From an uncultured Anaerolineales bacterium (lineage in GTDB: Bacteria > Chloroflexota > Anaerolineae > UBA1429), in NCBI GenBank assembly GCA_964407215.1, contig CAYOUT010000003.1, positions 187,648 to 251,647 on the forward strand: a stretch of DNA of 64,000 nt, written 5' to 3'. The notes under the pieces are model-generated. The model saw nothing but the letters and a program-made list of their open reading frames with translations, was not told the origin of the DNA and searched no databases. Positions within the stretch are counted from its first letter, which is position 1. Every line of letters starts with the position of its first letter. Made by a program: the position numbers and the translations under genes. Below, piece after piece: positions 9,929-32,322 of this stretch.

Positions 9929-9942
9929 ATGCGGGGCGGTTT

Positions 9943-10548
9943 TCAGTGAGCGCGACGCCCGAGAGACCAGACTCGTGAGACAGCCTCACTCACGCGGACT
10001 CCCAGCTCACGCCACCCCTGGCTTGCCCGCGTGTCCCATGAGCTGAGACTGAGCAGCAGGCCGAGCCCGGCGCACACTGCGAATAGGCCACTCCAGATGG
10101 CCCAGAGCACTTGGCTATCCCGCAGGTCGTGCAAGGATTCCAGCCATGCGACTGCGGTGCTCACCCAAATCCCCACAGACCCTGCGGCAAAAGTGCTCCA
10201 ACTCTCCGAGAGCAGGCGCGCTGGAGGCAGCATCAAGATGGTTGCCAAGGCGGTGAGCAAGGTCAAAAGAGGCACTAAGACAGACCACGGCAGAGGCTGC
10301 CACGTCTCCTCGGCGGCAGCACGTCGGCTTTTAATAGATCGCATGACTCTGGTGTGCAACTCCGGTGGGACAGACTCCAGAGGCATACCTCGCAATGCAT
10401 CTTCCATCAAGTAGATCTGATAGAGGCGCTGACGGCACTGCGGGCATTGTCGCACGTGGGCTCGCAGGTGTTCATAGCGGGCTGCGGTCGGCTCACCATC
10501 GGCCACAAACTGGAGCAGGCCCTGTTGGATGGCTTCACATGGGGGCAT
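9943..10548 (-). CDS. Zinc-binding anti-sigma factor (zf-HC2) with transmembrane helices
   Basis: Start at MPPCEAIQ (ATG 10548); HVRQCPQC = HxxxCxxC; hydrophobic C-terminal helices; overlaps the end of the ECF sigma gene. Confidence 0.85.
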   Translation of the reverse strand: MPPCEAIQQGLLQFVADGEPTAARYEHLRAHVRQCPQCRQRLYQIYLMEDALRGMPLESVPPELHTRVMRSIKSRRAAAEETWQPLPWSVLVPLLTLLTALATILMLPPARLLSESWSTFAAGSVGIWVSTAVAWLESLHDLRDSQVLWAIWSGLFAVCAGLGLLLSLSSWDTRASQGWRELGVRVSEAVSRVWSLGRRAH

Positions 10549-14196: not shown

Positions 14197-14281
14197 CTCT
14201 ACTGAATCCTCCATAGCACATGATGCGAATCATGGTGTCGAGGTCTAATACCTGAGGCTATTATACTTGATCACACTATCC

Positions 14282-16103: not shown

Positions 16104-17372
16104 ATGCCCGACCGTACCGAGATCGCGGATCTTCTCGTCAGGACCGAATCCTACCTAGTGGACGTGCTGCTGCCCTTCTGGATCGAGCGCTCGCCGGACC
16201 GCAAGATGGGCGGGTTCCTCACCTATTTCGATCGGCAAGGGTCCCCGACGGGCGAGACCACCAAAACCTTCCTGATGCAAATCCGGATGCTCTTCACCAT
16301 GGCCAGCGCCCACCGAGCGGGCTATGGCGGTGGGCGCTGTGCCGAACTCTCTGACATGGGGGCGGGTTTTGTTCTGGAGCATTATTGGGATCGCGAATAC
16401 GAGGGTTGGCTCTGGATCGCCGATCGCTATGGCCGCATAACCAACGCCAGCAAAGTGGGATATGGGCAGTGTTTCGGCGTCTATGCCTTTAGCGAATATG
16501 CCCTCGCTACGGGGGATTCGCGTGGCCGCGAGGCGGCGGAGCGAACCTACGCTGCGATAGCGAAACACATGGCCGACACGCGTTACGGCGGCTATCTGGA
16601 GATCATGCGCCCCGACTGGCAACCCGAACGCCCGGGCAGATACGGCGGCGATCGCAAGAGCTTTGATGTGCATATGCACATGATGGAGGCACTTACCACC
16701 CTGTACGAGTTGACCGGCAGCGCCACGCATCGCCGGCGCCTGCTGGAGGTCATCGATCTGCTTATCTATCGCATGCTGGAGCCGGAGGGGCGCGGCGGAT
16801 ATATGCAGTTTGGGCTCGATTTTCAACCCCTGCCGGCTATTCTCTTTGAGGTGGAGTGGGGCAGCGATGAGGAGCCGGTGGGCGGAGTCGCGCATCCGTT
16901 GGATCTGACATCCTACGGGCACAATATCGAGTTCGTCTGGTTGCTGCTGCACGCCGCCGACATACTGGGGATTCCTCGCACAAACTATGCGGAGATCGTG
17001 CGCAGGATCAGCGATCAATGCGTGCAATATGGTATCGACTGGGAATTCGGCGGTGTGTACGTCGATGGCCCCTTTGAGGGGATGGCGTCGAACCAGCACA
17101 AGCAATTCTGGCAGCACGCGGAGGTGCTGGTGGGAATGTTGGACGCCTACGCTCTGCTGGGGGATGAGCGATACTGGCAGGCGTTTCGCAATGTGTACGA
17201 TTTCGTCATGACCCGATTCATCAACCTGCCCGCGGGCGGCGAGTGGTATGCCCTGCTGGACCGTCAGGGCACCCCAGTGTGGGACTACTTGGGTCATGCG
17301 TGGAAGATCAGCTACCATACCGTGCGCTCCATGGTACAGGTGATCGCGCGCCTGCGAGCCCTGCTACAATGA
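16104..17372 (+). CDS. AGE family epimerase/isomerase (N-acylglucosamine 2-epimerase / cellobiose 2-epimerase-like)
   Basis: LLPFW, MQIRMLF (Arg), DVHMHMMEA, TSYGHNIEFVWLL, FWQHAE, WKISYHTVR: the conserved His/Glu/Arg set of the (alpha/alpha)6 AGE family. Confidence 0.9.
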   Translation: MPDRTEIADLLVRTESYLVDVLLPFWIERSPDRKMGGFLTYFDRQGSPTGETTKTFLMQIRMLFTMASAHRAGYGGGRCAELSDMGAGFVLEHYWDREYEGWLWIADRYGRITNASKVGYGQCFGVYAFSEYALATGDSRGREAAERTYAAIAKHMADTRYGGYLEIMRPDWQPERPGRYGGDRKSFDVHMHMMEALTTLYELTGSATHRRRLLEVIDLLIYRMLEPEGRGGYMQFGLDFQPLPAILFEVEWGSDEEPVGGVAHPLDLTSYGHNIEFVWLLLHAADILGIPRTNYAEIVRRISDQCVQYGIDWEFGGVYVDGPFEGMASNQHKQFWQHAEVLVGMLDAYALLGDERYWQAFRNVYDFVMTRFINLPAGGEWYALLDRQGTPVWDYLGHAWKISYHTVRSMVQVIARLRALLQ

Positions 17373-17432: not shown

Positions 17433-17453
17433 AGGCTCAACTGAATACGAACA

Positions 17454-17590
17454 GCCTTCGGGGCAGGGTGAGACATCATGTCAATTCCCGATCGGCGGTA
17501 TGGCAGAGCATCTCTGCCGAGCCCGCGAGCCAGTATTGGCAGATCCGGTGCAAAGCCGGAGCCGACGGTACAGTCCGGATGAGAGAAGGC
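17454..17590 (+). ncRNA. FMN riboswitch (RFN element)
   Basis: GCCTTCGGGGCAGGGTGA...ATTCCCGATCGGCGGTA...AGCCCGCGAGCC...GATCCGGTGCAAAGCCGGAGCCGACGGTACAGTCCGGATGAGAGAAGGC matches the RFN consensus; P1 GCCTTC/GAAGGC. Confidence 0.95.
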
Positions 17591-17623
17591 ACAGCGTCTA
17601 TCAAGGCGAATTGTGAGTGTGCG

Positions 17624-17656: not shown

Positions 17657-18478
17657 ATGCGAGCAGTCGATAATTCCAAGGACCATGTGAGGCGTGTCTC
17701 AAAACAGCGCTGCGACCTCCGATCGAGCGGTGTACACGCCTTGATTCCGGCTGTGTTGCTCCTCCTAGTGTTGTTGTGGGAGCTTGTGGTTCGCTGGGCG
17801 GGCTACCCTGCTTTCTTTTTGCCCACACCAGGGCTCGTCTTTAGCCGATTCGTCTCGGCCTGGCAGAGTAACACGCTGCAGATCCATATCTGGATTACGC
17901 TGCGCGAAGTGTTTGGCGGCCTAGCGCTGGGGCTGTTCGTCGCCATCGTCTTGGGCTACCTACTGGCCAAGTCGCGCACGCTCGAGCGGATCGTAACACC
18001 GTATATTGTGTCCGCCCAGGCGATCCCTATCGTTGCCTTGGCGCCTCTCCTCGTGATCTGGTTCGGCACAGGCATCCTCTCGAAGGTGCTGGTGTGCGCT
18101 CTGACTCTCTTTTTCCCTGTGCTCATCAATACAATCGTCGGTGTGCGCAGTGTGGATCGTGAGCTGCTGGAGCTCATGCGCTCGCTCCAGGCCTCGCGCT
18201 GGCAGATCTTTCGTTATCTCGAGTTACCCGCCGCGCTTCCGGTGCTCTTGGGCGGACTCAAGGTAGGCGTGACCCTTTCGGTTATTGGCGCCGTGGTGGG
18301 CGAGTTTGTGGGTGCGGACCGCGGGCTGGGGTTCCTCGTCAACCTCGCCAGGGGTCTATTTGATACGCCTTTGATGTTCGTGGCTTTGTTCGTCCTCATG
18401 GCGATCGCCCTGGGGCTTTATCTGACCGTCTCGGTTTTGGAATCCCGGCTGTTACGATGGCGCTGGACTGAGGATTAG
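17657..18478 (+). CDS. ribX: ABC transporter permease (SsuC/TauC-like), probable riboflavin transporter RibX
   Basis: Six-TM BPD permease with EAA-like loop (ELMRSLQASRWQIFRYLELPAALP); first gene after the FMN riboswitch; start uncertain. Confidence 0.8.
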   Translation: MRAVDNSKDHVRRVSKQRCDLRSSGVHALIPAVLLLLVLLWELVVRWAGYPAFFLPTPGLVFSRFVSAWQSNTLQIHIWITLREVFGGLALGLFVAIVLGYLLAKSRTLERIVTPYIVSAQAIPIVALAPLLVIWFGTGILSKVLVCALTLFFPVLINTIVGVRSVDRELLELMRSLQASRWQIFRYLELPAALPVLLGGLKVGVTLSVIGAVVGEFVGADRGLGFLVNLARGLFDTPLMFVALFVLMAIALGLYLTVSVLESRLLRWRWTED

Positions 18479-18515
18479 CACGGTTCGGCCCAATCTCTGT
18501 GTTGTGGAGGATCCT

Positions 18516-19502
18516 GTGAAACGTTACCACATGTCGCTGTTGTCACTAGCTGTTCTGCTGTGTTTGCTCGCAGCGTGCAGCCCCGTCTCCGTGTCTCCCC
18601 AAGAAGAGGGGTATCGCGATGTGTCTATCGCGATGGGCTTTGTTCCCAACGTGCAATTCACACCCATGTACGTGGCCCTGGAGCGTGGGTACTTTGAGGA
18701 AGAAGGTCTCAATATCGAGCTGGATTATGGTATGGAGACCGACTTGCTACAACAAGTGGGGGCCAACAAGGTGCCTTTTGCTATTGTCAGCGGCGATCAG
18801 ACTATCTTGGCGCGGGGCAACGGCCTGCCGGTGACTTATGTCTTTAACTGGTATCGGCGCTTTCCTGTTTGTATCGTCTCTATGGCCAGCTCTGGCATTA
18901 CCGAGCCAGCGGATCTTGTGGGGCGCACGGTGGGCACCACAGCATTGGAGGGTGCTAGCTACTTGGGATGGCTCGCCTTCCTCAAACAGGTGGAAATCCC
19001 CGCTGCGGACATCGACCTACAGGTGATCGGTTACACTCAAGTGCCCAGCCTGGTCGAGGGCCGTGTGGATGCCGCCATCTCTTACGCTATGAACGAGCCT
19101 GTCCAGCTCAAAGCGGCCGGCCACGAGGTCAATGTGTTCTACCTCGATAGCTACACCCATCTCGTCTCAAACGGCATCGTGACCAACGATATGACTATCG
19201 AGGAAGAGCCCGAACTGGTGGAAAGAGTTGTGCGAGCCTTCCGGCGAGGCCTACAAGATACCATCGACGATCCCGATGCTGCGTTTGAGATCACCCGCAA
19301 GGCGATCCCCGAGATGGACGATGACACTGCTGTGCTGCAGCGGGCAGTGCTTGAGGAGTGTGTGGTGTTCTGGCGCGGTGATAACCTGGGCGCCAGTGTA
19401 CCGGAGCACTGGAAAGAGTCGGTGGAGCTGCTCCAGGAGATCGGTCTGCTCGAGATCGACGTAGATCCCGACGGATTGTACACTAACACCTTTGTCGAGT
19501 GA
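18516..19502 (+). CDS. ribY: NMT1/THI5-like substrate-binding lipoprotein, probable riboflavin-binding RibY
   Basis: GTG start after GGAGG; lipobox LLAAC; PNVQFTPMYVALERGYF THI5-type motif; FMN-riboswitch context. Confidence 0.8.
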   Translation: MKRYHMSLLSLAVLLCLLAACSPVSVSPQEEGYRDVSIAMGFVPNVQFTPMYVALERGYFEEEGLNIELDYGMETDLLQQVGANKVPFAIVSGDQTILARGNGLPVTYVFNWYRRFPVCIVSMASSGITEPADLVGRTVGTTALEGASYLGWLAFLKQVEIPAADIDLQVIGYTQVPSLVEGRVDAAISYAMNEPVQLKAAGHEVNVFYLDSYTHLVSNGIVTNDMTIEEEPELVERVVRAFRRGLQDTIDDPDAAFEITRKAIPEMDDDTAVLQRAVLEECVVFWRGDNLGASVPEHWKESVELLQEIGLLEIDVDPDGLYTNTFVE

Positions 19503-19505
19503 TGC

Positions 19506-20261
19506 ATGTCTCAGCCCATTCTCATCGCCAGGCACGTCCAGATGGTCTTTTCCTCGCCCGAAGCGGAGCTGGAGGCGCTGGCCGAGGCCGACTTGGCCGT
19601 GAACGCTAACGAGTTTGTGTGTGTCATCGGGCCGTCGGGGTGTGGCAAGTCCACTTTGCTTCGCATCCTCGGCGGCCTGGTGAGGCCCACCAGCGGGCAT
19701 GTGATATACAAGGGAAGGGCCTTGACGGAGCCGCAGCGGAGCATCGGCTATGTATTCCAGCGCTCCAACCTGATGCCCTGGCGCTCATCTTTGGCCAACG
19801 TGATGCTTCCGCTGGAGCTCGCCGGCACGCCGCGCGCTGTGGCCGAGGTGCGCGCGCGGGAGATGCTCGAGTTGGTGGGACTGACGGATTTCGTGCGTGC
19901 TCTACCACGCGATCTCTCGGGTGGTATGCGTCAGCGGGTGGCACTGGCCCGCGCTTTGATCCAGGATCCCGATGTGTTGTTGCTCGACGAGCCTTTTGGT
20001 GCGCTGGATGCGTTGACACGCGAGCGTATGACGTGGGAGTTGCTGCGCATCTGGCAGGCGCGTCGCAAGACGGTGATCATGGTGACGCACAATATCCAAG
20101 AGGCGGTCTTTTTGTCGGATCGTGTGCTGGCGATGAGTCCCCGGCCCGGACGTATCGAGGCCGAGGTGGTAATCGACCTCCCTCGACCGCGTTCCGAGGA
20201 AGACCTCTATACGAGGCGCTTCACCGAGTTGGCGCGCGTCCTACGCGACACGCTCCGCTAG
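19506..20261 (+). CDS. ABC transporter ATP-binding protein (SsuB/TauB-like)
   Basis: GPSGCGKST, LSGGMRQR, LLLDEPFGALD, VTH. Confidence 0.93.
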   Translation: MSQPILIARHVQMVFSSPEAELEALAEADLAVNANEFVCVIGPSGCGKSTLLRILGGLVRPTSGHVIYKGRALTEPQRSIGYVFQRSNLMPWRSSLANVMLPLELAGTPRAVAEVRAREMLELVGLTDFVRALPRDLSGGMRQRVALARALIQDPDVLLLDEPFGALDALTRERMTWELLRIWQARRKTVIMVTHNIQEAVFLSDRVLAMSPRPGRIEAEVVIDLPRPRSEEDLYTRRFTELARVLRDTLR

Positions 20262-20291: not shown

Positions 20292-21581
20292 CTAGGACTC
20301 GAGAGCGATCTCTCTTTGCTCCAGTCGCGGCTCGCGCACGCCCCAACGCATGGCGGCCCACCCCATCAACGACAGGAGCAAGGCGGCGACAAACATCACC
20401 TGGAACCCCAACCAATCTACCAACCAGCCCCCCAGGATGGGCGCCAACAACACTGGTACGGTCAAGAGGGTGTCTGCCAGCGCAGTAAAGGTGGGCAGAT
20501 CGTCGAGAGTGCTGAACTCCATGGTCATGCTAGTGTTCGCTACCATCATACCCGCCGATGCTGCGCTCATGAGCATGAATACGGCGTATAGCCATCCTAG
20601 GCTGGGGGCTATCAGGGTCAAGACGCCGGCAGCCGCAGCGATCAGGGTGCACAGCTCCGTGAGCCATTTGTGTCCGAGGCGGTCCGCCAGGGCGCCAAGA
20701 AGCGGCGTGCATGCAGTGACGCTAAAGAGTGCTGCGATCGTCAGGTTGCCAGCAAAGGCGTCCGTGGCGCCGAAAGCGCGACGGGCGTACACGATGTAAA
20801 AGAATGCGCCCATGCCACCGAGCGCTATGAGCGCTCGCCCCACCAGGTAGCGTACGAAATTTGGATTCCCTTTGAGCACATTCGGTAGGTTGTGCCAATA
20901 GTCCTTCAGTGGAAGCGCTTCTTTGACGGGCTCGAGAGCTGGCTCTCGGTTCAGGGTCAGGCTGACATAAGACAGCGCGTGAAATACAAAACAGAACAGG
21001 AAACAGATGCCGAATGAGATGGGGTAGGGATAGTTATCCAGGATTCTGCTGGACACAGCGGCACCAGCCATGCCCAATACGCCCCCCAGCGCCTGGCTGC
21101 CGCCGAACAACAGTCCTCGCTTTTGAAGAGGTACCACCTTGGCTAACATTGCTTTCCAAGCGGGCGCTGCCAGCCCCCCTGCCGCAGTAGCCACCGTAAG
21201 GTTCAGACTGAGAACCAGATAGGCGAGCCATCTCGGCGCACCGGGCCAGAGTAGGATGCCGAGGCCCACCACCAAGTAGGGCAAGCGCTCCATTACGCTG
21301 ATCTTCATGATCAAGGGTTTCTTGCGGGGTAGCCGCTCGGCCATGTGGGCCAGGAGCAGTTGAGGGATGCTAAAGCCCACGCTCTGTATCGCGGGGATGA
21401 GGCCGATCAGCACGGCAGAGCTGGTGAGATGGCTGGCGTAGAGTGATAGCACGGTGGCGCCATAGATGAAACTCATGGCCAAGTTGAAAAAGGTGAGGTC
21501 CAGGAAATTGGCTGTGAAATTCCAAGTCTGGTGCTTGCGTATGTGAGCCTGGTAGGCGCTCATCTGTGCAGAATCTGTCAT
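20292..21581 (-). CDS. MFS transporter
   Basis: About 12 hydrophobic helices; motif-A-like GALADRLGHK and AHMAERLPRKK; start 21581 or 21563. Confidence 0.85.
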   Translation of the reverse strand: MTDSAQMSAYQAHIRKHQTWNFTANFLDLTFFNLAMSFIYGATVLSLYASHLTSSAVLIGLIPAIQSVGFSIPQLLLAHMAERLPRKKPLIMKISVMERLPYLVVGLGILLWPGAPRWLAYLVLSLNLTVATAAGGLAAPAWKAMLAKVVPLQKRGLLFGGSQALGGVLGMAGAAVSSRILDNYPYPISFGICFLFCFVFHALSYVSLTLNREPALEPVKEALPLKDYWHNLPNVLKGNPNFVRYLVGRALIALGGMGAFFYIVYARRAFGATDAFAGNLTIAALFSVTACTPLLGALADRLGHKWLTELCTLIAAAAGVLTLIAPSLGWLYAVFMLMSAASAGMMVANTSMTMEFSTLDDLPTFTALADTLLTVPVLLAPILGGWLVDWLGFQVMFVAALLLSLMGWAAMRWGVREPRLEQREIALES

Positions 21582-21790
21582 CGAGATCCGATCTGCGCTG
21601 GAGGGGTTCACCCGTGCAATGTGCTCTGCGATGTCAAAGCGCTCGACGGCGCATCGTAACACGGCGACATCGGGCTGTCAAAACGTTGCCGTGTATGCTA
21701 CGGTTCTCTTGGCGAGTCATTTGCGCGGCTGCTCTAGAAGGGCTAGTATTGGCGTATTGAGATGACAGCGGAGGAGTGAGAGCAGGGAAT

Positions 21791-23080
21791 ATGCAGATCA
21801 GACTCGCGTACGGTCGCAGCGGCTTGGATGTGTCGGTGCCCGACGACGCCACCGTTTTATTGCCCCGGGCTCTGCCCAGCCTGGGTGACGAGGCACGCGC
21901 GCTCTCTACGGCGCTCGAACAGCCCATTGGCTGCCCTCCTCTGTCGTATCTTGTGCCTGAGGACGCTCGTGTAGTGATCGTCTTCAGCGATATCACTCGC
22001 CCCATGCCCAACGATCGAGTGTTGCCCGTGTTGCTGGCTGCCCTGGAGCATGTACCTAGTGAGCGGATCACGCTGCTCAACGGCTTGGGCACGCATCGCC
22101 CCAATACGCCTCAAGAGCTTGAAGAGATGCTGGGGCGAGCCACCGTGGAACGTTATCACATAGCACAACACAATGCGTGGGATAAGGCCAACCTCGTAAC
22201 GATCGGTATTAACAGCCTAGGTCGCCCAGTGCGCATCAACCGCACATATCAGGAAGCTGACGTCAAAATCCTGACCGGCTTCATCGAACCCCACATCTTT
22301 GCTGGTTTTAGCGGTGGCCCCAAAGCTGTGCTGCCTGCTGTGGCGGGTATCGATACCATTATGGACAACCACGGCTACAGCATGCTGAATCATCCTTCTG
22401 CCACTTGGGGGGTTACCGAGGGGAACCCGGTCTGGGAGGAGATGCGTGAGGCCGCGGCCATGACCGCACCGGATTTCCTGTTGAATGTGGCCTTGAACTG
22501 TGAACGGGCTATCACGGGGGTGTTCGCCGGAGATGTATGGCAGGCCCACGGTCGGGGGGTCGAGTTCGTGCGATCCACCGCTATGCGGCCGGTGGACCAC
22601 CTCTTTGACATCGCGATCACCACGAACAGTGGCTATCCTTTGGACATCAACCTGTATCAGGCCGTCAAAGGGATGTCGGCGGCGGCCGGCATCGTCAAGC
22701 CCGGCGGGAGTATCATCATTGCCGCTGAGTGTCGTGAAGGGATCCCCGATTATGGCGAGTACAAGGATATTATCCACGAGGGCGGCTCACTACAGGGGGT
22801 GCTGGACCTGATCAGCCAACCCGGCTACCATCGCCACGACCAATGGGAGGCACAGCTTCAGGTGGGCATCCAATCCAAGGCCGACGTTTATGTGTACAGT
22901 GATTACCTCTCGGATGAGCAGCTGGAGGGTATGTTGTTCAAACCTTGTAGCAATATAGAGGCCACCCTGACGGAATTGCTGCAACGCTATGGGCCCGAGG
23001 CCAGCATTTGCGTGCTGCCCGAGGGGCCGCAGACTGTACCCTATCTGAGTTCCGCTCAGAATCACGAGGAGGCGGAATGA
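21791..23080 (+). CDS. larA: Nickel-pincer (NPN)-dependent lactate racemase LarA family protein
   Basis: SDITRP, GTHRP, EPHIFAGFSGGPK, IMDNH, YQAVKG: all catalytic and cofactor-binding residues of LarA are present at the expected spacing. Confidence 0.9.
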   Translation: MQIRLAYGRSGLDVSVPDDATVLLPRALPSLGDEARALSTALEQPIGCPPLSYLVPEDARVVIVFSDITRPMPNDRVLPVLLAALEHVPSERITLLNGLGTHRPNTPQELEEMLGRATVERYHIAQHNAWDKANLVTIGINSLGRPVRINRTYQEADVKILTGFIEPHIFAGFSGGPKAVLPAVAGIDTIMDNHGYSMLNHPSATWGVTEGNPVWEEMREAAAMTAPDFLLNVALNCERAITGVFAGDVWQAHGRGVEFVRSTAMRPVDHLFDIAITTNSGYPLDINLYQAVKGMSAAAGIVKPGGSIIIAAECREGIPDYGEYKDIIHEGGSLQGVLDLISQPGYHRHDQWEAQLQVGIQSKADVYVYSDYLSDEQLEGMLFKPCSNIEATLTELLQRYGPEASICVLPEGPQTVPYLSSAQNHEEAE

Positions 23081-25149
23081 ACGTGCGAGACCATCCATTG
23101 CGCATACTTCCCGAGCCCAAGCAGGTGGTTTTGGAGGCCGGCTTTTTCCGGCTCGATGCGGATACGCGTATCGTCCTGTTACCGAGCGCCAATAACGCGG
23201 CATTTGGTGCAGCATCGAGCCTCCAGCGGGAGATCCAAGAGTCCACAAGCCTGTGTCCGCGTATCGAAAAAACGGCCGAACCGACAGGCCGTGTGAACGC
23301 GATTTTGCTCGCTGCAGATTACGGCGCTGCTCAGGCTTTCTTGGGGGAATTGCCTGAACAGCTCGCCCCAGGGCCTGCGGACCGGCAAGCGTACCGCATT
23401 CAGATTAGCTCAGACAGGGTGCTGGTTATAGGCGCGGGTGATGAGGGGTTGTATTACGCTATCCAGACTCTGCGTCAGATCTGTCGTTTGGAACACAGCC
23501 GTTGGCCAGCGCTGTTCATCGCCGATTGGCCGTCACTCTCATGCCGAGGATTGATGCTGGATGTGTCGAGGGGGAAGGTGCCCACGCTCGAGACGCTCAG
23601 GCTGCTGATTGATCACCTCAGCCTTTTCAAGGCCAACGTGCTGCAGCTCTATACCGAGCACACCTTTGTCTTTCCACATCACCCGCGCATTGGGGAGAGC
23701 GCGGGTTCGTTATCTGGTAACGACATCATGGAGCTGGATGCCTACGCGCGTGCGCACCATGTGGAGCTCATGCCGAACCTGAACTCGTTTGGGCACTGTG
23801 AGCACCTCCTCAGCCTGCCCGGGTATCGTGACTTGGCCGAATCAGCCGCGGCTTGGTCGCTTTGCCCGACCGATGAGCGGACCTACGAGCTGATAGACGA
23901 CCTGTACGGCGATCTGTTGCCAGCGTTCAGCTCGAAGACGTTGAATATCGGATGTGATGAGACGTACGATCTGGGCAAAGGACGCTCGAAAGAGGCGGTA
24001 GCTCATGAGGGCACTGGACGCTTGTATCTGCGCCATATCCTGCGACTTTACGAGATCGCTAGGCGCCGCGGCGCCAGGATTCAGCTCTGGGGTGATATCC
24101 TGTTGCATTACCCCGAGTTGGTCGGCGAGTTGCCCCAAGATATCACGCTGCTCGATTGGCACTATGAGGCTGCCGATGATTACCCGTCGGTGCGGGTCTT
24201 TGCCGAAAGTGGCAGGGAGTTCTGGGTGTGTCCCGGCACTTCGTCGTGGAACACCCTCTTTCCGCGCATCGAAAACTCGAACGCGAATATCAGGGCGCTT
24301 GCACGTACAGGGGTTGAACACGGCGCCAGAGGCTTGCTCAACACGGATTGGGGGGATTCGGGCCACTATCAACCCATTGGGCAGTGCTGGTATGGATATG
24401 CGTTCGGCGCCGCACAGGCTTGGTCGGGCGGTGTCACAGAGGACGCGGTGTTCGATGCCAGCTTTGCCCCTCTCTATTTCGGCGCGAGTGGCGATTCCGT
24501 GGTCAGCGGGATGCGCGCCTTGGGCAGGCTGAACACGCTGCCGGGCATGGCTCGCCCCAACGCAAGCCGGAGTATCCACGCCTTGCTCGACGAGCCGCTG
24601 GTTGGCCCTCTCGCCGACGAGATCCCCGCAGAAACCGCCCGGGAGCTCGTGCACCGCAGCGATGAAGCGGTGGTACAATTCTACGACGCTATGGCCATCT
24701 CGCGCGATCGGCGCTCATTGGAGGAAATGGCGCTCTCAGCTCAATTGATGGGGCTGGCGGGTCGCAAGCTGACGCTCTCTCGAGAAGTGAGAGCTCTGCT
24801 GGCACGGCCCATCGATGATACCGAACAGATGGCTGTGCAACTGGAGCGATCTGCCGACGCGTTCGCGGCGCTCAACTCGGAACTCGGCGCGCTCACGCTC
24901 TTGTTCCAGGAACAGTGGTTGCGGCGTGCCCGGGCATCGGAGATCGGCATCAGTCTCGGACACTTTGGCCGCCTCAGCGAGAGGCTTGAGGCGGCACGCG
25001 GCTGGCTGGCGCAACGCGCAGCACAACAAAGGGCGGGCAAGACCCCTGGAGATGGGCTGTCCGCCTATGCGCAAGAAGCTGAGAGCTACGAGTACCTTGG
25101 CCAGGGCTTTTTGTGCCGGTTCAGCGGGTTGGACATCGCTTGGGACTAG
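23077..25149 (+). CDS. GH20 family glycoside hydrolase (beta-N-acetylhexosaminidase-like)
   Basis: GH20 domain 2 (LPEPKQV...AYRIQIS...GLYYAIQTLRQ), RGLMLDVSRG, NIGCDE catalytic Asp-Glu, WGD, PGTSSWN; ATGA overlap with larA. Confidence 0.88.
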   Translation: MNVRDHPLRILPEPKQVVLEAGFFRLDADTRIVLLPSANNAAFGAASSLQREIQESTSLCPRIEKTAEPTGRVNAILLAADYGAAQAFLGELPEQLAPGPADRQAYRIQISSDRVLVIGAGDEGLYYAIQTLRQICRLEHSRWPALFIADWPSLSCRGLMLDVSRGKVPTLETLRLLIDHLSLFKANVLQLYTEHTFVFPHHPRIGESAGSLSGNDIMELDAYARAHHVELMPNLNSFGHCEHLLSLPGYRDLAESAAAWSLCPTDERTYELIDDLYGDLLPAFSSKTLNIGCDETYDLGKGRSKEAVAHEGTGRLYLRHILRLYEIARRRGARIQLWGDILLHYPELVGELPQDITLLDWHYEAADDYPSVRVFAESGREFWVCPGTSSWNTLFPRIENSNANIRALARTGVEHGARGLLNTDWGDSGHYQPIGQCWYGYAFGAAQAWSGGVTEDAVFDASFAPLYFGASGDSVVSGMRALGRLNTLPGMARPNASRSIHALLDEPLVGPLADEIPAETARELVHRSDEAVVQFYDAMAISRDRRSLEEMALSAQLMGLAGRKLTLSREVRALLARPIDDTEQMAVQLERSADAFAALNSELGALTLLFQEQWLRRARASEIGISLGHFGRLSERLEAARGWLAQRAAQQRAGKTPGDGLSAYAQEAESYEYLGQGFLCRFSGLDIAWD

Positions 25150-25180
25150 CGCGCGTTCGACCATAGCCACCGTTAGGGCG

Positions 25181-25450
25181 CTAGTTTTCGATGATGCGTT
25201 CGACGACGATAGTGCAGTTGGTTACCAGCGCAGCAAAGGCGCCAATAGCGGCCAACACTGGCGCAAAGACCACGCCCACAGCTGCCACTGTGAGCGGCAG
25301 CTCCATGATCGTCTCGCCTTCTTGCTTGATGACGATCCGACGCGTGTTCCCTTCGTGAACCAGTTCTTTGACCTTGTCGACGAGCTGCGAGCCGGAGACC
25401 TGAAACTCCTCGCGCTCCACCTTGGGCTCTTCGGGTGCTTGCTCTGTCAT
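25181..25450 (-). CDS. DUF4342 domain-containing protein
   Basis: EEFQVSGSQLVDKVKELVHEGNTRRIVIK...LPLTV....PVLAAIGAFAALVTNCTIVVER is characteristic of the family. Confidence 0.85.
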   Translation of the reverse strand: MTEQAPEEPKVEREEFQVSGSQLVDKVKELVHEGNTRRIVIKQEGETIMELPLTVAAVGVVFAPVLAAIGAFAALVTNCTIVVERIIEN

Positions 25451-25516
25451 ACGGATGTCTCCTTTTGCGCGGTAACGAGTTGCCCGCGCCTTTGTGTAAT
25501 GCGATTGCTCCTATCT

Positions 25517-25545
25517 CTATACGATGGCTATCCGAGTGGGTTGCG
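25517..25545 (-). promoter_or_regulatory. Candidate sigmaW-like ECF promoter upstream of DUF4342 gene
   Basis: Minus strand CGCAAC-N16-CGTATAG; same architecture at 61521-61549. Confidence 0.45.
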
Positions 25546-25615
25546 AGGTAATGACACCCTATCTACGAAACACCTTCCCAGTTAGTCGGCACCTGTGTAT
25601 GGAGGTCATCGAGTT

Positions 25616-26182
25616 ATGTGCCCAAATCCCGACCACACGGCTTCCCCGAGCGACACTACGCCGTCCGCTGGGGGGGGTGGCAGTTGGCTCATCGAGCTGG
25701 CGCGCACTTTTTTGCCCGCTGTGCTCATCGTGGTGAGCATCAATCTGTTTCTAGCTCAGCCACGCACGGTCCACGGCGAGAGTATGGAGCCGAATCTACA
25801 CGAGAACCAACGGGTGATTCTGGATCTCGTCAGCTACCGGTTCCGCGAACCGCAACGCGGAGAGATCGTGGTGATTCGGTTCCCCGGCGAGCGTAAAGAT
25901 CCACTAATCAAACGAGTTGTCGCGCTGGCCGGCGAGACGGTTGAGATACGATCCGGCGTGGTCTATGTTGATGGAGTCAAGCTTGATGAACCCTATCTCG
26001 ATTACAACGCCGGAGGTTCCATGGCCTCGCTGGTAGTTCCCGCCGACCACGTGTTCGTGTTGGGCGACAACCGTGGCCGCAGTAACGACTCTCGCTATTT
26101 CGGGGCTGTGTCCATGAGGAGCATTCTGGGGCGCGCGTGGTTGTGCTACTGGCCGCCCGACAAAATCGCGCTCTTGCATTGA
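25616..26182 (+). CDS. lepB: Signal peptidase I
   Basis: TM helix, GESM (catalytic Ser), PLIKRV (catalytic Lys), FVLGDNR..SNDSR. Confidence 0.93.
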   Translation: MCPNPDHTASPSDTTPSAGGGGSWLIELARTFLPAVLIVVSINLFLAQPRTVHGESMEPNLHENQRVILDLVSYRFREPQRGEIVVIRFPGERKDPLIKRVVALAGETVEIRSGVVYVDGVKLDEPYLDYNAGGSMASLVVPADHVFVLGDNRGRSNDSRYFGAVSMRSILGRAWLCYWPPDKIALLH

Positions 26183-26220
26183 TCCTCGCTCGTCCCTCCC
26201 CCGCGAGATACCTCACGGAA

Positions 26221-26249
26221 GGAACAACCTTCGCGAGCACACCGTCCTG
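26221..26249 (+). promoter_or_regulatory. Candidate ECF-sigma promoter upstream of PA14 gene
   Basis: GGAACAA-N16-GTCCTG. Confidence 0.35.
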
Positions 26250-26325
26250 GGATCGACGTGGCTGGCACGTTGCGGTCTCAGGCAGCGCATCGTCGAGGTC
26301 GGGCACTCTGCCTGGAGGATAACTC

Positions 26326-28005
26326 ATGAAGCCTATCGCCCGCTATGCTCTGGGGCTTGTAATGTTGGTGGGGCTGGTACTCTCGTTAACGTTTGGTACC
26401 CTGTGGGGCTCTCGAGATAGTGAAACGGATCAATGGGCCATCCCGCAGCGTCCTTCCGAGTTGGAGGAGGGTTCTATCGAGGCGCTATTCACCGCGCTCG
26501 AGTGGACGCAGCAGGGCGGACGATCTAGTTCCTGTGCTCGCTTGACCATTGACGAGACTCTGCGCCCGCACTATGCCCAGTGTGGGCAGGCCGGCGCCGT
26601 CGGAGCGCTATCTCCGGAAGAAATGCGAACCTATCTGATATACCTCGCGCGATACACCCCTTTCGATGAGGTCATACCAGGCGATGCCTCCATCGGTGCG
26701 AATGGCCTCGTGTTTGGGCTCCGGTTTCCCGGCCGGGGGAGCCGCCAACCCTCTTCGGAGGACCGGGCAGAGATCGCGCGTTGGGCGGCTCAGCTCTACG
26801 ATCGCCTGGCCCGAGAGCGGCGCGAGGGGGAGATCGTTGCTAGCGCGCGCACATTGTTGGCTCAGAGACTCGGCATCTCGCCCGACGACATCACCACCTA
26901 TAGCGTTGAGGCGATCACCTGGCCCAGCGCCTGCTTGGACATCCGCGTTAAGGGCATGGATTGCGCACAAGTGCGGACACCGGGATATCGCATCCTGCTT
27001 CAAGTCGATGATCTGGTCTACGAGTATCGCACAGATCTGTATGAAAAGGTGTACGGCCTCGAGACCGCCGTCAGGCTGAGGCTGCCGACGCCGCAAGCGA
27101 CGCCGCTACCGACTATCGCGACGCCCACCGCAACACCCACGACTACAGCCGCCCCCACCGCCACGGCTGTACCCACCAGCACGCCAATACAGATCACCGA
27201 GTGGCGCGGAAAGTACTATGCCAACCTCGATCTCAGCGGAGAGCCAGTTCTGGTGAGTAACGATAGCGCTGTGTCATTCGATTGGGGCCACGATGCACCC
27301 GCATATGGGCTGCCGCCGGATGGTTTCTCGGTGCGTTGGACGCGGCGCCTGCTTTTTGAGGAGGGATGGTACGACTTTCGGCTGCGCGGTGATGATGGCG
27401 TACGCTTGCGGCTCGACAGCCATGTGGTGATCGAGCGCTGGGAGGACGGTTGGTCGGACGATAGCGTCAAGCTGCATCTGTGGGCGGGGTACCACGATGT
27501 CGTGGTCGAGTTCTATGAGCATCGCGGCGTGGCAAGCGTCGACCTGCACTGGGAGGAGTTTGTTGCGCCTGCTAGTCCAACTCCAACCAGCGAGCCGACC
27601 GAAACCTTGCAGCGTGAAGCGGGTGACGAGGCTTGGACAGCGGTGTACTGGAACGAGCCAGAGCCAGAGGGGGAGCCGATTCTGACGCGGCTCGAAAGCC
27701 AGCTCGATCTGGATTGGGGCAGAGGCTCACCCGATGAAAGGGTACAGCGCGACCACTTTTCGGCTCGTTTCACTCGAGAGTTTGTTCTGCCCGAGAGACT
27801 CTACAGGCTGCGGGTACGCGCGAATGACAGGGTGCGCGTCTACGTGGACGATCAGCTGGTCATCGATGGCTGGCACGATGTCAGCCGTAAGCAGCTAACC
27901 GAGCGCTTGCGGCTGTCGGGACCACACACGTTCCGCATCGACTATGCCGAGATCACCGGCCGGGCATCGCTCTCGTTCTCGGTGGAGCGGGAGAGTAGTG
28001 AGTAA
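26326..28005 (+). CDS. Exported/membrane-anchored protein with two PA14 domains
   Basis: N-terminal hydrophobic helix, TWPSACL...CAQVRTPGY module, Pro/Thr linker, two repeats with FDWG...FSVRW...GDDGVRL..D and LDWG...FSARF...ANDRVRVYVD. Confidence 0.85.
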   Translation: MKPIARYALGLVMLVGLVLSLTFGTLWGSRDSETDQWAIPQRPSELEEGSIEALFTALEWTQQGGRSSSCARLTIDETLRPHYAQCGQAGAVGALSPEEMRTYLIYLARYTPFDEVIPGDASIGANGLVFGLRFPGRGSRQPSSEDRAEIARWAAQLYDRLARERREGEIVASARTLLAQRLGISPDDITTYSVEAITWPSACLDIRVKGMDCAQVRTPGYRILLQVDDLVYEYRTDLYEKVYGLETAVRLRLPTPQATPLPTIATPTATPTTTAAPTATAVPTSTPIQITEWRGKYYANLDLSGEPVLVSNDSAVSFDWGHDAPAYGLPPDGFSVRWTRRLLFEEGWYDFRLRGDDGVRLRLDSHVVIERWEDGWSDDSVKLHLWAGYHDVVVEFYEHRGVASVDLHWEEFVAPASPTPTSEPTETLQREAGDEAWTAVYWNEPEPEGEPILTRLESQLDLDWGRGSPDERVQRDHFSARFTREFVLPERLYRLRVRANDRVRVYVDDQLVIDGWHDVSRKQLTERLRLSGPHTFRIDYAEITGRASLSFSVERESSE

Positions 28006-28122
28006 CGCGGTTGCGCGCCCGCCAGCGCTACGCTGAGAATAAGAGAGCGTCTCAACAAAGCGCAAGCTGTAACCCCCGCTCTGACGGGCGTTCGACTCGC
28101 TCACAGCCAGCCGGGCCCTGTT

Positions 28123-28812
28123 TTAGACCGGCTCTATCAGGATGTCGTCCCCCAGCATGCCGGCATAGGCCCCCTGAGCCACAAGCTCCGTGGCGCCTGG
28201 GTGCACTATAAGCCATTTGTTCACGGCAAAGAGCAGCTTGCTCTCTCCTACACGAGGCGCTGCAAAGGGGAGCGGTTCATTTGTGCCCCGGGGCAAATAG
28301 ACCAACGCGGCAAAGCTGCCGCCCTTGCGCACATGGATCGGCGCAAAGTGCAGGTTCCAGGGAAAGAACTCTACAACGCTTCCCGCCGGCGCATAGAACG
28401 CGGCCACTTGCTCCGTGTCGTAGCGTATCTCCTCACCGTATACCACGTCCTGTACATCGCCCACCAGCAGGATCAGGTCACTCAGACAGACGTTCACCTC
28501 GCTGCCTTTGTGGTACTCCAAGCCGGACATTTGCAGGTTCTGGCCGTAACACCAGCCAACCTGTACGGGCATGCCTCCGAACACCTCCTGCGTAATGGCC
28601 GTCAGGAAACAGCTCTTTTCCTCCAAAGGGGGGATAGAAGGCTCATAGACTACGCCTTCTGAAGATGGTAGGAGCATTTTCGCTTGCGCGATCACTGCGC
28701 TGGCGTCGTAACGTGTCAACAACCTGCCGTACCGACGAAACGCGTCCGCTTCGACGGAGAGCAGATCGAGATGGGGATTCGCGCCCTGTAATGTGCGCAG
28801 AATGTCGTCCAT
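28123..28812 (-). CDS. DUF4867 family protein (cupin-like)
   Basis: Start MDDILRT (ATG 28812); FRRYGR, QVGWCYGQN..M.GLEYHKGSE, LHFAP, LFAVNKWLIVH. Confidence 0.8.
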   Translation of the reverse strand: MDDILRTLQGANPHLDLLSVEADAFRRYGRLLTRYDASAVIAQAKMLLPSSEGVVYEPSIPPLEEKSCFLTAITQEVFGGMPVQVGWCYGQNLQMSGLEYHKGSEVNVCLSDLILLVGDVQDVVYGEEIRYDTEQVAAFYAPAGSVVEFFPWNLHFAPIHVRKGGSFAALVYLPRGTNEPLPFAAPRVGESKLLFAVNKWLIVHPGATELVAQGAYAGMLGDDILIEPV

Positions 28813-28995
28813 GGTTCTCCTTGAGATAGCTCGACTGAGGCTCTGTTTTGATGACGATCGGATAATGTGCCCTCGGATACGGCTAGGATCCCATTGTAAC
28901 GTACCGTGACCGCGCACGCCAACGAGAAGAGAGACGGGCGCTAACCCCCGCTGCTGCTCGGAAGAAATGTGCTCGGCAAGGATGGCAGAGGGGAT

Positions 28996-29024
28996 TCGAC
29001 ACTTGTGACCCCCGAGCGTATAAT
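28996..29024 (+). promoter_or_regulatory. Sigma70-type promoter for the GNAT-fusion operon
   Basis: TCGACA-N17-TATAAT. Confidence 0.6.
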
Positions 29025-29094
29025 CGTCAACCTATGCGGCTGCCCCGCACATCAGGGGGCGCCGCCATTCTCAGCAGCGTACTGGAGTAACACC

Positions 29095-32000: not shown

Positions 32001-32238
32001 GAGATGGGGGGCGCTCACTAACGACGCCAACGGCAAGACGATGTTGTTGGTGGCGCGTGGCCCTCACGTGACGCTGCACGATGGCGGACGGCACGGCCGC
32101 AGGCTGATCGTCAGCGATGAAGCCAGGTTGGCAGGTGGCGAGACGCGTGAGTATGTGCAGTATCTGGTCGCGGCAGAGTCTCTTGAGGCCGCATTGAGCT
32201 ACGTGATACTCCAGGACTATCAGGATTCATGTGAGTAG
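29095..32238 (+). CDS. Large protein (1047 aa) with N-terminal GNAT acetyltransferase domain and about 880 aa of uncharacterised beta-rich domains
   Basis: Start MSDVVIRP; GNAT motif A LLNVSPKYQKRSIGRRL, motif B NLKAVPTYKKTG; remainder not recognised. Confidence 0.75.
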   Translation: MSDVVIRPLDIDRDAARLAAMWNDSDEEWPNSFASGVPITEEMIREWDQEDRMLVVFVAEVDGEIAGYCSFMGDHHGLKNEGYVGLLNVSPKYQKRSIGRRLIQATIERSVQEGWRRQTLTTWSANLKAVPTYKKTGHFWKPDSSVWMENYIPGALQLPLTKPFFERHDWYRTMVRDLAQREDEEVWEGLKVYTERWEAGDEALIIRIDREARAPVAVDTDTVMVAVIADEIEPLAGSKVTLHWRVTNKGTETIQIHLHALGDKGLSIDHRDAWSVPAGTTVERTAQVEVAEDAPRSKEDGSAPAVRSLLRVDDREVELFVGLRARKAISLDTAPAAITVTPGVPQCVNLQLHSELDKAQGATLWLTPPEGLTLDWTRHDVEISAKAHLSLPLTVEAARDGVFALPVRVTFDNSSAKPLTEDLTVFSLPMGGLLAHQQGDSVRLETDTLRITALAKNGSIRVEHKAGRYEMAVLAPRLGPPFYPSEFEGQTFDMSLETSSGCAIVHMAAEAKSYRGLYLHQAFCLSVGGIATVEHILENRGNQAYTVRPRLWARSGDSEREDLVLPLREGLLRSPSSSHALAWLDVPRNPREYAEPWIAWTRERSTVGLAWPAAAMRISVEWNAAIDMAEVTLEPGQRSIPTRTAVYLGEGDWRTARAALQRAMGFAAALEEPFDERPAALAEMCPRIIATTRQRVAAHLRASNAANRAYDGEVAVCLPEGCNSQPQTLPIYNLNHSHPCEREIELTLPDDRLGVYTGQVRLTLCHAEEERPFHVLRLGTEAPVYIEEGIQHGQPVWTLENGSSSFQVAPAFCGSVIAWMRAGENQLASSFPDPESFGWSYPVFGGVQPWLIYPGTDAWEGYLHREPMRAEELEERDAQGLPWRGVRLSTRPKKKELSDLFVELDYLTLGSADILKLVYRIRNLRGTEQSAHVGYRVMGSLGAGPAGLTLRGEGYVRRPSIVAASVGGRRWGALTNDANGKTMLLVARGPHVTLHDGGRHGRRLIVSDEARLAGGETREYVQYLVAAESLEAALSYVILQDYQDSCE

Positions 32239-32322
32239 ACGGTGTGCTGTCCACAGGATGGCCCCGCCCATCGATATCTCTTAGGCCGGCGTGAGAGATC
32301 GACGCCATACAAGGAGGCCAAA

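Follow-up and report, generated by a model that had tools for sequence, protein, structure and literature searches.

A predicted lactate-type LarA racemase and a predicted cytoplasmic GH20 hexosaminidase form a two-gene operon in an Anaerolineae lineage

In the 64-kb stretch of DNA analysed here (the window), a gene for a nickel-pincer-nucleotide-dependent racemase (larA) runs directly into a gene for a GH20 glycoside hydrolase, and an MFS transporter gene diverges from the pair. Why should a racemase and a hexosaminidase be encoded together? Genomic context is the main tool for guessing the substrates of LarA-superfamily enzymes (PMC7583248), and an initial annotation of this locus had read the arrangement as an import-hydrolyse-epimerise module. 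On balance, we consider it probable, though far from assured, that an ordinary LarA and an ordinary GH20 are encoded in a vertically inherited operon, and that GH20 is not the direct source of the LarA substrate. Our literature search found no paper tying LarA to a hexosaminidase or describing a larA-GH20 pairing. The features of the locus are as follows.

20292..21581 (−): MFS transporter gene, 429 aa (Pfam MFS_1, 107.7 bits), divergent from larA
21582..21790 (no strand): divergent intergenic gap between the MFS gene and larA, 209 nt, read from the sequence
21653..21681 (−): TTGACA-17-TACGAT plus TG extension, resembling a sigma-70 promoter of the MFS gene (consensus scan, 10/12; a pattern match only)
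21791..23080 (+): larA, predicted nickel-pincer-nucleotide-dependent 2-hydroxy-acid racemase of the lactate/short-chain type, 429 aa (Lar_N and LarA_C, NF033504)
23066..23072 (+): GAGGAGG, Shine-Dalgarno sequence of GH20, within the larA 3' end, read from the sequence
23077..23080 (+): ATGA stop/start overlap of larA and GH20, read from the sequence; the same 4-nt overlap was called on the contig L243
23077..25149 (+): GH20, predicted cytoplasmic, three-domain exo-beta-N-acetylhexosaminidase of the GH20C/GcnA type, 690 aa (Pfam, PDB profile, AF2 fold)
25181..25450 (−): small DUF4342 gene, 89 aa (Pfam DUF4342, 102.7 bits), convergent with GH20; context, not an operon member

The TGA stop codon of larA (23078-23080) overlaps the ATG of GH20 (23077-23079), just as the initial annotation had described, and larA followed by GH20 forms a two-gene operon. 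In related loci, the spacing between the two genes ranges from an overlap to about 180 nt, and is mostly between an overlap and ~60 nt. The genes would be co-transcribed and, in the window, also translationally coupled. Overlaps of this 4-nt ATGA type are common in operons, and the one seen here is by itself statistically unremarkable.

The MFS gene does diverge from larA, across a gap that we read as 209 nt and not the 210 nt given previously. Its ORF spans 20292-21662 (−), where the probable ATG start at 21581 yields a protein of 429 aa, and an independent gene call on the Logan contig L243 gave the same 429-aa product. The gap (21582..21790) contained no Rfam family match and no motif in common with the DNA upstream of larA in 20 related loci. 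A PDB search with the MFS protein returned no relative, and a comparison with the MFS genes adjoining unlinked GH20 detected no homology. Among the loci listed, tblastn placed this MFS gene next to larA in no more than about four genomes (the window, L011/L099, L087, and L004), and a three-gene larA-GH20-MFS synteny does not hold. The MFS gene is no conserved partner of the larA-GH20 pair; it is an unrelated divergent neighbour.

The pair itself is widely shared. We sampled 25 loci of the GH20 clade, the last of which (L098) ends inside GH20, leaving 24 that could be evaluated for an upstream larA; in all 24, larA lies directly upstream of GH20. At least 25 species-level genomes of Anaerolineae share the pair, so it is not unique to this genome. 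Outside the clade, none of the 55 GH20 homologue loci listed had larA within ~10 kb. From the larA side, only two of the 78 orthologue loci listed (49-69% identical to the window LarA) carried a linked GH20, and 76 were unlinked. No independent recurrence of the pairing in an unrelated lineage appeared among these 55 outside GH20 loci and 76 other larA loci. In both trees, built by neighbour-joining only, the linked copies group in a single clade; the locus counts, obtained from genome scans, are lower bounds. The two genes were joined once, in the ancestor of one Anaerolineae lineage, and the pair has probably been passed on by vertical descent since then within a larger gene-order block. Two genomes nested within the linked clade (L003 and L004) have kept larA and are missing GH20.

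The DUF4342 gene is a marker of this conserved gene-order block, of which the pair forms the left edge. By tblastn, it follows closely after GH20 in 17 related GH20-anchored loci, directly after larA in L003, and ~700 nt downstream of larA in L004; the genes flanking the pair in related genomes are heterogeneous. The pair was retained in 24/24 evaluable clade GH20 loci, compared with about 17/22 for DUF4342, at divergences down to ~50% amino-acid identity. This stronger retention hints at selection for co-expression, and at some functional tie for which the reading of two ordinary enzymes does not account.

The identity of LarA was examined by profile and structure-based comparisons. Pfam assigned the domains Lar_N (PF09861, 209.5 bits) and LarA_C (PF21113, 99.5 bits). 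The protein scored 484.4 bits against the NCBIfam lactate-racemase equivalog NF033504 (cut-off 460), and fell well under the cut-offs of the NCBIfam malate-racemase and LarAH10 models. Its best PDB match was I. pallida LarA (9eid, 289 bits, full length), and it also aligned over its full length with 2yjg and 5huq. D67/R70, H102, H168, K178, H194, Y289, and Q290/K293 align with documented residues of solved LarA structures, and all are invariant across the 31 relatives compared; the full catalytic set reported in the initial annotation is thus confirmed. H102 and H168 align with the catalytic histidines of the I. pallida enzyme and are equivalent to H108 and H174 of L. plantarum LarA. The cofactor-tethering K178, the nickel ligand H194, and D67/R70 correspond to K184, H200, and D72 and R75 of the latter. 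The reaction would follow the usual proton-coupled hydride transfer, with a pair of catalytic histidines, a cofactor tethered to Lys, and His as the nickel ligand.

The LAR pocket signature consists of F, F, W, and E/Q at the positions of LarA1 F175, F176, W358, and T359 (PMC11770544 section 6). The corresponding residues of the window LarA are I169, F170, W352, and E353, which fit the signature at three of four positions; the first is Ile where the signature has Phe. Most linked LarA sequences have Ile or Leu at this position, and Phe is found in four linked copies and in most unlinked orthologues. Additionally, Arg347/His349 are often present in the linked clade. Together with Ile/Leu at position 169, they could shift the substrate preference of LarA. 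The catalytic and binding residues are identical between linked and unlinked LarA, and the pocket is essentially the same. Judged by its residues, it appears to be of the lactate/short-chain type, not the sugar-acid type. Interconversion of D- and L-lactate would be the most likely activity, and glycerate or 2-hydroxybutyrate may serve as side substrates. Around the unlinked larA orthologues, the genes seen most often encode FAD-linked oxidases resembling GlcD/D-lactate dehydrogenase (5/136), and the context is otherwise not conserved.

Isosphaera pallida LarA (LarAIp, formerly LarAH2/Sar; PDB 9EID/9EIA) is a short-chain 2-hydroxy-acid racemase with lactate and 2-hydroxybutyrate as its best substrates (PMC11851776). 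It belongs to the same two-domain fold family as the window LarA, and the Arg, the two catalytic His, the Lys, the nickel His, the Tyr, the Gln, and the second Lys all align. The pockets differ, with L174, M175, W356, and Q357 in LarAIp in place of I169, F170, W352, and E353, which brings the window LarA nearer to the LAR signature. Leu at the first position is a feature of the broader-spectrum LarAIp, which falls outside the whole Chloroflexota/Planctomycetota/Spirochaetia orthologue group in the neighbour-joining tree. To our knowledge, LarAIp has no GH20 neighbour. Against L. plantarum LarA (5HUQ) and Thermoanaerobacterium thermosaccharolyticum LarA (2YJG), the window LarA scored 229-231 bits. 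Both have Phe as the first pocket residue, where the window LarA has Ile, and the DQWEAQ motif and the FAGFSGGxK loop are common to the window LarA and 2YJG. The L. plantarum larA is in an operon with larB, larC, and larE, whereas the window larA has no lar cofactor gene nearby.

Both Pfam domains of GH20, Glyco_hydro_20b (PF02838, 60.3 bits) and Glyco_hydro_20 (PF00728, 56.1 bits), scored above their cut-offs, and a PDB profile search retrieved S. pneumoniae GH20C (5a69, E 4e-23). The AF2 model (pLDDT 90.8) matched GH20C and GcnA in Foldseek with TM 0.72 (query) and 0.80 (target) over ~640-680 columns (E 1e-27), a full-length fold match that includes the C-terminal helical domain. The D294-E295 pair, part of the motif GCDET, does not vary among the 34 sequences and lines up with the catalytic DE residues of S. 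pneumoniae GH20C. On inspection only, the N-terminus (MNVRDHPLRILPEPKQ) showed no hydrophobic segment and hence no signal peptide, and in the model the domain begins at residue 16, with its first strand spanning residues 16-25. The retained Asp-Glu pair and the lack of a signal peptide both agree with the initial annotation. GH20 would trim terminal beta-GlcNAc or beta-GalNAc from imported or recycled amino-sugar oligosaccharides in the cytoplasm, by substrate-assisted catalysis through the Asp-Glu pair. In comparison with its unlinked homologues, 106 positions are conserved in both groups and only seven are clade-specific, none of them catalytic.

The top profile and fold matches, S. pneumoniae GH20C (5A69 and related entries) and S. 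gordonii GcnA (2EPK), are only ~17% identical to the window GH20, and their genes do not adjoin larA. S. pneumoniae GH20C is an exo-beta-hexosaminidase from a glycan-processing locus with a GH38 and a ROK kinase (PMC5215778). GH38 genes occur in the window 9 kb and 18 kb away, and are not conserved with the larA-GH20 pair. The unlinked Chloroflexota GH20 (loci L106-L162) belong to the same family, with 37-51% identity and all catalytic motifs in common with the window GH20. Their neighbours include Gfo/Idh/MocA oxidoreductases (12/71) as well as NagA-like, SIS, ROK, LacI, sugar-MFS, and AnmK genes, and no larA.

Both active sites are those of the unlinked orthologues, so LarA and GH20 probably perform their usual tasks, and known family functions suffice to annotate the two genes. 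A single joining event inside a gene-order block, combined with unchanged active sites, is weak evidence for a shared pathway, and we infer that GH20 would not hand a product directly to LarA. The initial annotation had proposed such a hand-over, in which the MFS transporter imports a lactyl- or glycerate-linked hexosaminide, GH20 cleaves it, and LarA inverts the released 2-hydroxy acid. The tight operon with its translational coupling and the conservation of the pair in at least 25 genomes are compatible with this route, as is a small-substrate LarA pocket that would take lactate or glycerate (PMC11770544). We nevertheless regard the route as highly improbable, since the MFS gene adjoins larA in so few genomes, neither active site is different from that of unlinked orthologues, and the two genes came together only once, inside a conserved gene-order block. 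A sugar-acid substrate would conflict with the lactate/short-chain pocket (PMC11770544, PMC11851776), and a specialised GH20 with the near absence of clade-specific positions. Conserved adjacency does not establish a module when the pair arose once and two nested genomes carry larA without GH20. The initial interpretation therefore stands as regards the genes identified, the operon, and the intactness of the active sites, whereas the import-hydrolyse-epimerise module is unsupported, given an MFS gene that is not conserved, a lactate-type pocket, a GH20 without retooling, and a single origin. Nothing points to a hexosaminide carrying an alpha-hydroxy acid as aglycone, and no natural glycoside of this kind is known to us. 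Above all, the case illustrates the limits of substrate guessing from genomic context.

MurNAc-derived D-lactate is the sole sub-option of the initial annotation that survives, weakly and as an indirect link, which is possible because distant GH20 relatives adjoin anmK and nagA-like genes. A NagZ-like GH20 would act on GlcNAc-(anhydro)MurNAc or muropeptide disaccharides, AnmK/MurK and then a MurQ-type etherase encoded elsewhere would yield D-lactate, and LarA would interconvert D- and L-lactate and thereby make it usable, so that the two ends of an amino-sugar/peptidoglycan salvage route would be co-expressed from the operon. The release of D-lactate from MurNAc-6-phosphate by MurQ is established chemistry that favours this scheme. 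Furthermore, an AnmK gene (Pfam AnmK, 338 bits) lies 3 nt upstream of a distant GH20 homologue in L147 and ~170 nt upstream in L146, genes for SIS, a NagA-like amidohydrolase, and GH20 follow one another in this order at L139 and L140 of Thermomicrobium, ROK and BadF-type kinases recur near distant homologues, and the pair is kept slightly better than the background gene order. We still consider it unlikely, as searches of the 64-kb window and of 90 genes around the pair in related genomes revealed no anmK, murQ/SIS, nagA, or nagB, anmK adjoins GH20 in only 2-3 of ~55 loci, all without larA, the usual muropeptide glucosaminidases are not GH20 (NagZ is GH3), and two genomes inside the clade lost GH20 and kept larA. 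If the two enzymes were metabolically tied, lactate-type racemases would gain a physiological role in uncultured Anaerolineae, through cell-wall/glycan amino-sugar recycling. A bolder version, which seems quite doubtful, is an unrecognised salvage route with a racemase dedicated to D-lactate or a small 2-hydroxy acid from cytoplasmic amino-sugar glycan breakdown. The source would be peptidoglycan MurNAc or a still unknown HexNAc-O-hydroxy-acid conjugate, and LarA would then have a defined role in cell-wall or necromass recycling in Anaerolineae. The preferred reading, two ordinary enzymes in an inherited operon, takes LarA to be supplied with its cofactor. The opposite view, that the genome lacks larB, larC, and larE and that larA is a relic or has a cofactor-independent role, strikes us as barely credible. 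It draws on the lack of any larB, larC, or larE domain in the scanned ORFs of the 64-kb window, which the initial annotation had also noted, on the lack of lar cofactor genes within ~10 kb of the pair in related genomes, and on the lack of a pair-bearing genome among the LarE matches listed (genome scan; protein search, best 120 matches). However, all 20 full-length linked sequences compared, with pairwise identities of 51-91%, have the same tether Lys, nickel His, pair of catalytic His, and carboxylate-binding Arg/Gln/Lys, which argues for purifying selection on the holoenzyme, and LarE (TIGR00268, 314 bits) and LarC are encoded in sister Chloroflexota with an orthologous larA (L031, L056, and the genome of L034).

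The larA and GH20 genes lie in tandem on the forward strand, and an MFS gene diverges from larA. The ORF map and translations confirmed all three genes as initially annotated:

20292-21662, reverse strand: ORF of the MFS gene, with the ATG start most likely at 21581 (429 aa; Pfam MFS_1, 107.7 bits)
21681-21653, reverse strand: sigma-70-like promoter match before the MFS gene, TTGACA-17-TACGAT (a pattern match)
21582-21790: MFS-larA intergenic gap, 209 nt
21791-23080, forward strand: larA (429 aa)
23077-23080: ATGA overlap, in which the stop codon of larA (TGA) shares bases with the start codon of GH20 (ATG)
23077-25149, forward strand: GH20 (690 aa)

An independent gene call on L243, a second contig from run SRR8925752 with identical proteins, likewise gave an MFS product of 429 aa. 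A GAGGAGG Shine-Dalgarno sequence is located within larA, four bases 5' of the GH20 overlap, and no intrinsic terminator-like site was found between the two genes. An Rfam scan of the larA leader and the operon detected no riboswitch or other element, and no operator-like motif common to the larA upstream regions of 21 loci was found. The ORF at 24815-25585 (forward strand) was discarded as spurious, as it has no Pfam match, overlaps the GH20 end, and is antisense to a conserved DUF4342 gene. The G+C content of the window is ~60%, and the closest protein relatives are from metagenome-assembled genomes of Anaerolineae (Chloroflexota).

LarA contains the Pfam domains Lar_N (209.5 bits) and LarA_C (99.5 bits). 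It scored 484.4 bits on the NCBI lactate-racemase equivalog model NF033504 (cut-off 460) and fell far under the thresholds of the models for malate racemase, LarAH10, and hexonate epimerase. Among solved structures, it matched Isosphaera pallida LarA (LarAIp; 9eid, 289 bits), T. thermosaccharolyticum LarA (2yjg, 231 bits), L. plantarum LarA (5huq, 229 bits), and the malate racemase Mar2 (6d6z, 224 bits). The functional residues of LarAIp and LarA comprise carboxylate-binding, catalytic, and cofactor-tethering plus nickel-binding groups (PMC11851776). D67/R70, H102, H168, K178, H194, Y289, Q290, and K293 align with these residues and are invariant in an alignment with 31 relatives; therefore, the catalytic set listed in the initial annotation is correct.

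Substrate preference in this family is predicted from the equivalents of LarA1 F175, F176, W358, and T359, which are usually F, F, W, and E/Q in lactate racemases (PMC11770544). The structure and relative alignments place I169, F170, W352, and E353 at these positions, as compared with L, M, W, and Q in the broad-spectrum LarAIp. As predicted from its sequence, the pocket is small, hydrophobic, and lactate-type. In the lactate-type group, the preferred substrate of characterized enzymes is lactate, and glycerate or 2-hydroxybutyrate can serve instead (PMC11770544, PMC11851776). We rejected a gluconate- or malate-type enzyme, as the pocket carries neither the E, V, A, H nor the H/Q + K signature (PMC11770544). 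We also reasoned that MurNAc itself would not serve as a substrate, because its lactyl group is ether-linked and offers no free 2-hydroxyl for hydride transfer.

In the GH20 protein, Pfam detected GH20b (60.3 bits) and a portion of the catalytic domain (56.1 bits). When 34 homologues were combined into a profile, its best match was S. pneumoniae GH20C (E 4e-23), an exo-beta-hexosaminidase whose gene lies in a pneumococcal locus for glycan processing, with genes for a ROK kinase and a GH38 enzyme beside it (PMC5215778). The motif GCDET aligns with GMDEA of GH20C, which identifies D294-E295, both invariant, as the catalytic pair. The AlphaFold2 model (mean pLDDT 90.8, pTM 0.91) resembles full-length GH20C and S. 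gordonii GcnA (TM 0.72/0.80 over ~640-680 columns), including the C-terminal helical domain. The enzyme is considered cytoplasmic, since the N-terminus lacks a hydrophobic segment and the first domain strand of the model starts from residue 16.

We then compared copies in which larA and GH20 are adjacent (linked) with homologues that have no such partner beside them (unlinked). All of the catalytic and binding residues are common to linked and unlinked LarA orthologues. The main differences are Ile/Leu versus Phe at position 169 and variable residues at 347 and 349, and the combinations found in linked copies also occur among unlinked ones. For GH20, the comparison covered 23 linked and 47 unlinked sequences; the two groups have 106 conserved positions in common, and the linked clade has only 7 of its own, none of them in the catalytic motifs. 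Thus, neither protein is altered in a way that suggests a new reaction.

The distribution of the pair was determined by two reciprocal scans, anchored on LarA and on GH20, with one genome per species; the locus counts are lower bounds. These alignment-based scans replaced a first single-protein LarA scan of species genomes, which gave two distant matches. The LarA-anchored scan recovered at least 78 orthologue loci (L003-L082), with 49-69% identity to the window LarA. Among those listed, GH20 follows larA only in L005 and L011, and no neighbouring gene family occurs in more than 8 loci. Most of the pair-carrying genomes were seen only through the GH20-anchored scan (at least 80 loci), in which 25 loci (L083-L105, L130, and L132; 51-63% identity) form one GH20 clade. 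A larA gene (57-70% identical) lies directly upstream on the same strand in 24/24 evaluable loci of this clade; the contig of L098 starts inside GH20. The other 55 GH20 homologue loci listed (37-51% identity) have no larA within ~10 kb, and several out-of-clade genomes carry the two genes on different contigs (L018/L128, L020/L152, and L039/L118). Among metagenome matches, 13 LarA-GH20 pairs agree in the length of the longest contig, and two look-ups, which proved to concern the L104 and L083 genomes, also confirmed the adjacency. The spacing ranges from overlap to ~60 nt in most loci and is ~160-180 nt in three, indicating conservation of the operon arrangement but not of the exact ATGA overlap. 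The larA frame of three related genomes stays open for ~290-360 nt beyond the inferred start of GH20, which is read in another frame (L005/L100, 11277-11563; L093 and L097, about 9974-10335). Either the usual stop codon may have been lost from these larA genes, with a long GH20 overlap, or the assemblies may contain frame errors.

In neighbour-joining trees of trimmed alignments, the linked LarA sequences form one clade and the linked GH20 sequences form another with no unlinked member within it. Therefore, larA and GH20 were joined once. Pairwise identities within the clade are 51-91% for LarA and 48-90% for GH20. Two members of the linked LarA clade, L003 (nested inside) and L004 (at the edge), have no GH20. 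In L003, larA is followed directly by the convergent DUF4342 gene that elsewhere comes after GH20, and in L004 this gene lies ~700 nt downstream of larA, indicating that GH20 was lost while larA was kept.

The pair forms the left edge of a longer conserved block, present in the window, L244, L245, L099, and other loci, in which GH20 is followed by DUF4342 (convergent), signal peptidase I, PA14 or GH95, DUF4867, a GNAT protein of ~1050-1090 aa, and a class-V aminotransferase:

25181-33396 in the window and 13.3-21.3 kb in L244 and L245, both strands: conserved block of mixed functions downstream of GH20

The region upstream of larA is variable, with an integrase, csbD, MFS, or other genes. The DUF4342 gene, on the opposite strand, still adjoins GH20 in about 17/22 evaluable loci, which implies a high background of gene-order conservation in this lineage. 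The larA-GH20 adjacency (24/24 evaluable loci) is only somewhat better kept than that of DUF4342. The ORFs in related loci were called by a simple greedy procedure that left a few antisense artefacts. The block order is kept across genomes with only about 60% protein identity; the DUF4342 protein has 89 aa and a C-terminal hydrophobic helix, and the ~1050-1090-aa protein has an N-terminal GNAT domain.

Initially, a module was proposed in which the MFS protein imports a substrate, GH20 releases a 2-hydroxy acid, and LarA inverts it. The expected larA-GH20-MFS synteny held for larA and GH20 but not for the transporter, which adjoins larA in about four genomes (the window, L011/L099, L087 (partial), and L004 among the loci listed). 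The MFS protein showed no significant similarity to the MFS found upstream of unlinked GH20, and no solved-structure relative of it was found. The import-hydrolyse-epimerise scheme is not supported, given the lack of transporter conservation, a LarA pocket that is not of a sugar-acid type, the absence of retooling in either active site, and a linkage that goes back to a single event. The best-supported interpretation is that a predicted ordinary lactate-type racemase and a predicted ordinary cytoplasmic hexosaminidase came together a single time, as an operon of one Anaerolineae lineage, and were inherited vertically. The literature search, including full text and supplements, found no described link of LarA with a hexosaminidase or with MurNAc and no paper on the larA-GH20 pairing.

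An indirect tie between the two genes through D-lactate from MurNAc catabolism is possible. It is established chemistry that MurNAc-6-phosphate etherase releases D-lactate. PMC5061867 and PMC6165865 are background literature. In favour of the tie, relatives of the window GH20 adjoin anmK: in L147 (Thermalbibacter longus; 8730-9995), only 3 nt separate GH20 from an upstream gene for anhydro-MurNAc kinase (AnmK, 338 bits), and another lies close upstream in L146 (uncultured Thermomicrobium MAG; 8167-9753). In L139 (Bacterium HR28; 7576-9863) and L140 (Thermomicrobium sp. CFH 73360; 7531-9855), a SIS-domain gene and a NagA-like amidohydrolase gene precede GH20. This context suggests a NagZ-like role for the GH20 family in these four organisms. 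Around the larA-GH20 pair itself, none of the 90 neighbours is a nag, mur, or lar pathway gene.

The immediate neighbours of unlinked GH20 homologues include Gfo/Idh/MocA oxidoreductases (12/71), BadF-type ATPases, ROK kinases, LacI regulators, and sugar MFS transporters. These neighbours are more informative than those of unlinked larA and assign the family to cytoplasmic amino-sugar catabolism and, in a few genomes, to peptidoglycan sugar recycling. A Gfo/Idh/MocA gene (420-500 aa) often lies within ~100 nt downstream of larA-less GH20 (L112, L113, L115, L117, L122, L127, L133, L136, and others). It is thus a second recurring partner of GH20, and its product may be an NAD-dependent glycosidase similar to GH109 or else a sugar dehydrogenase. 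The commonest neighbour of unlinked larA orthologues is an FAD-linked oxidase of the GlcD/D-lactate-dehydrogenase type (5/136 immediate neighbours), the rest being scattered. This context weakly fits lactate metabolism; otherwise, larA appears as a stand-alone gene.

As initially reported, larB, larC, and larE are absent from the window: none of the ORFs scanned over the 64 kb contains a domain of LarB (AIR carboxylase-like), LarC, or LarE. A six-frame regular-expression search of all loci detected only LarE in the Anaerolineae locus L031 (TIGR00268, 314 bits), 9 kb from an unlinked larA, and LarC in the Dehalococcoidia locus L056, 9 kb from larA; both genomes lack the pair. With the L031 LarE as a query in protein and genome searches, the matches listed included the genomes of L034, L119, and L123 and no pair-carrying genome. 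The tether Lys and nickel-ligand His are unchanged across the clade, which argues that the genome makes the nickel-pincer cofactor. In L031 (17794-21241), LarE comes immediately after a lon protease gene, with which it overlaps. A lon gene also closes the window (61625-63997, reverse strand), and no match to LarE or any other Pfam family was obtained for its downstream ORFs (60855-61480).

Several other features of the window were assigned:

11728-14214 and 43138-46047, reverse strand: two GH38 alpha-mannosidase genes
16104-17372, forward strand: N-acylglucosamine-2-epimerase-family gene
17450-17594, forward strand: FMN riboswitch (Rfam RF00050, 99.6 bits), directly upstream of the ABC transporter
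17657-20261, forward strand: three-gene ABC transporter (permease, NMT1/THI5-type binding protein, and ATPase)
38222-38392, forward strand: SAM riboswitch (RF00162, 79.9 bits), upstream of the genes at 38490-41209 (forward strand)

In L004 and L011, too, these ABC genes lie ahead of the MFS gene. We excluded the transporter as a module member because it follows an FMN riboswitch and resembles a riboflavin importer; on sequence grounds, the best interpretation is a riboflavin-related importer with no connection to larA-GH20. Riboflavin-related importers of this type have been predicted in Chloroflexi. The candidate ORFs at 35982-38045 (reverse), 5827-6588 (forward), 55597-56556 (forward), and 42692-43714 (reverse), of up to 687 aa, gave no Pfam match at E 0.01. 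The GH38 genes and the epimerase-family gene hint at mannoside or N-glycan catabolism and are not conserved with larA-GH20. The genes at 38490-41209 encode a PLP enzyme of Cys/Met metabolism and, after it, an amino-acid kinase that contains ACT domains and is probably an aspartokinase.
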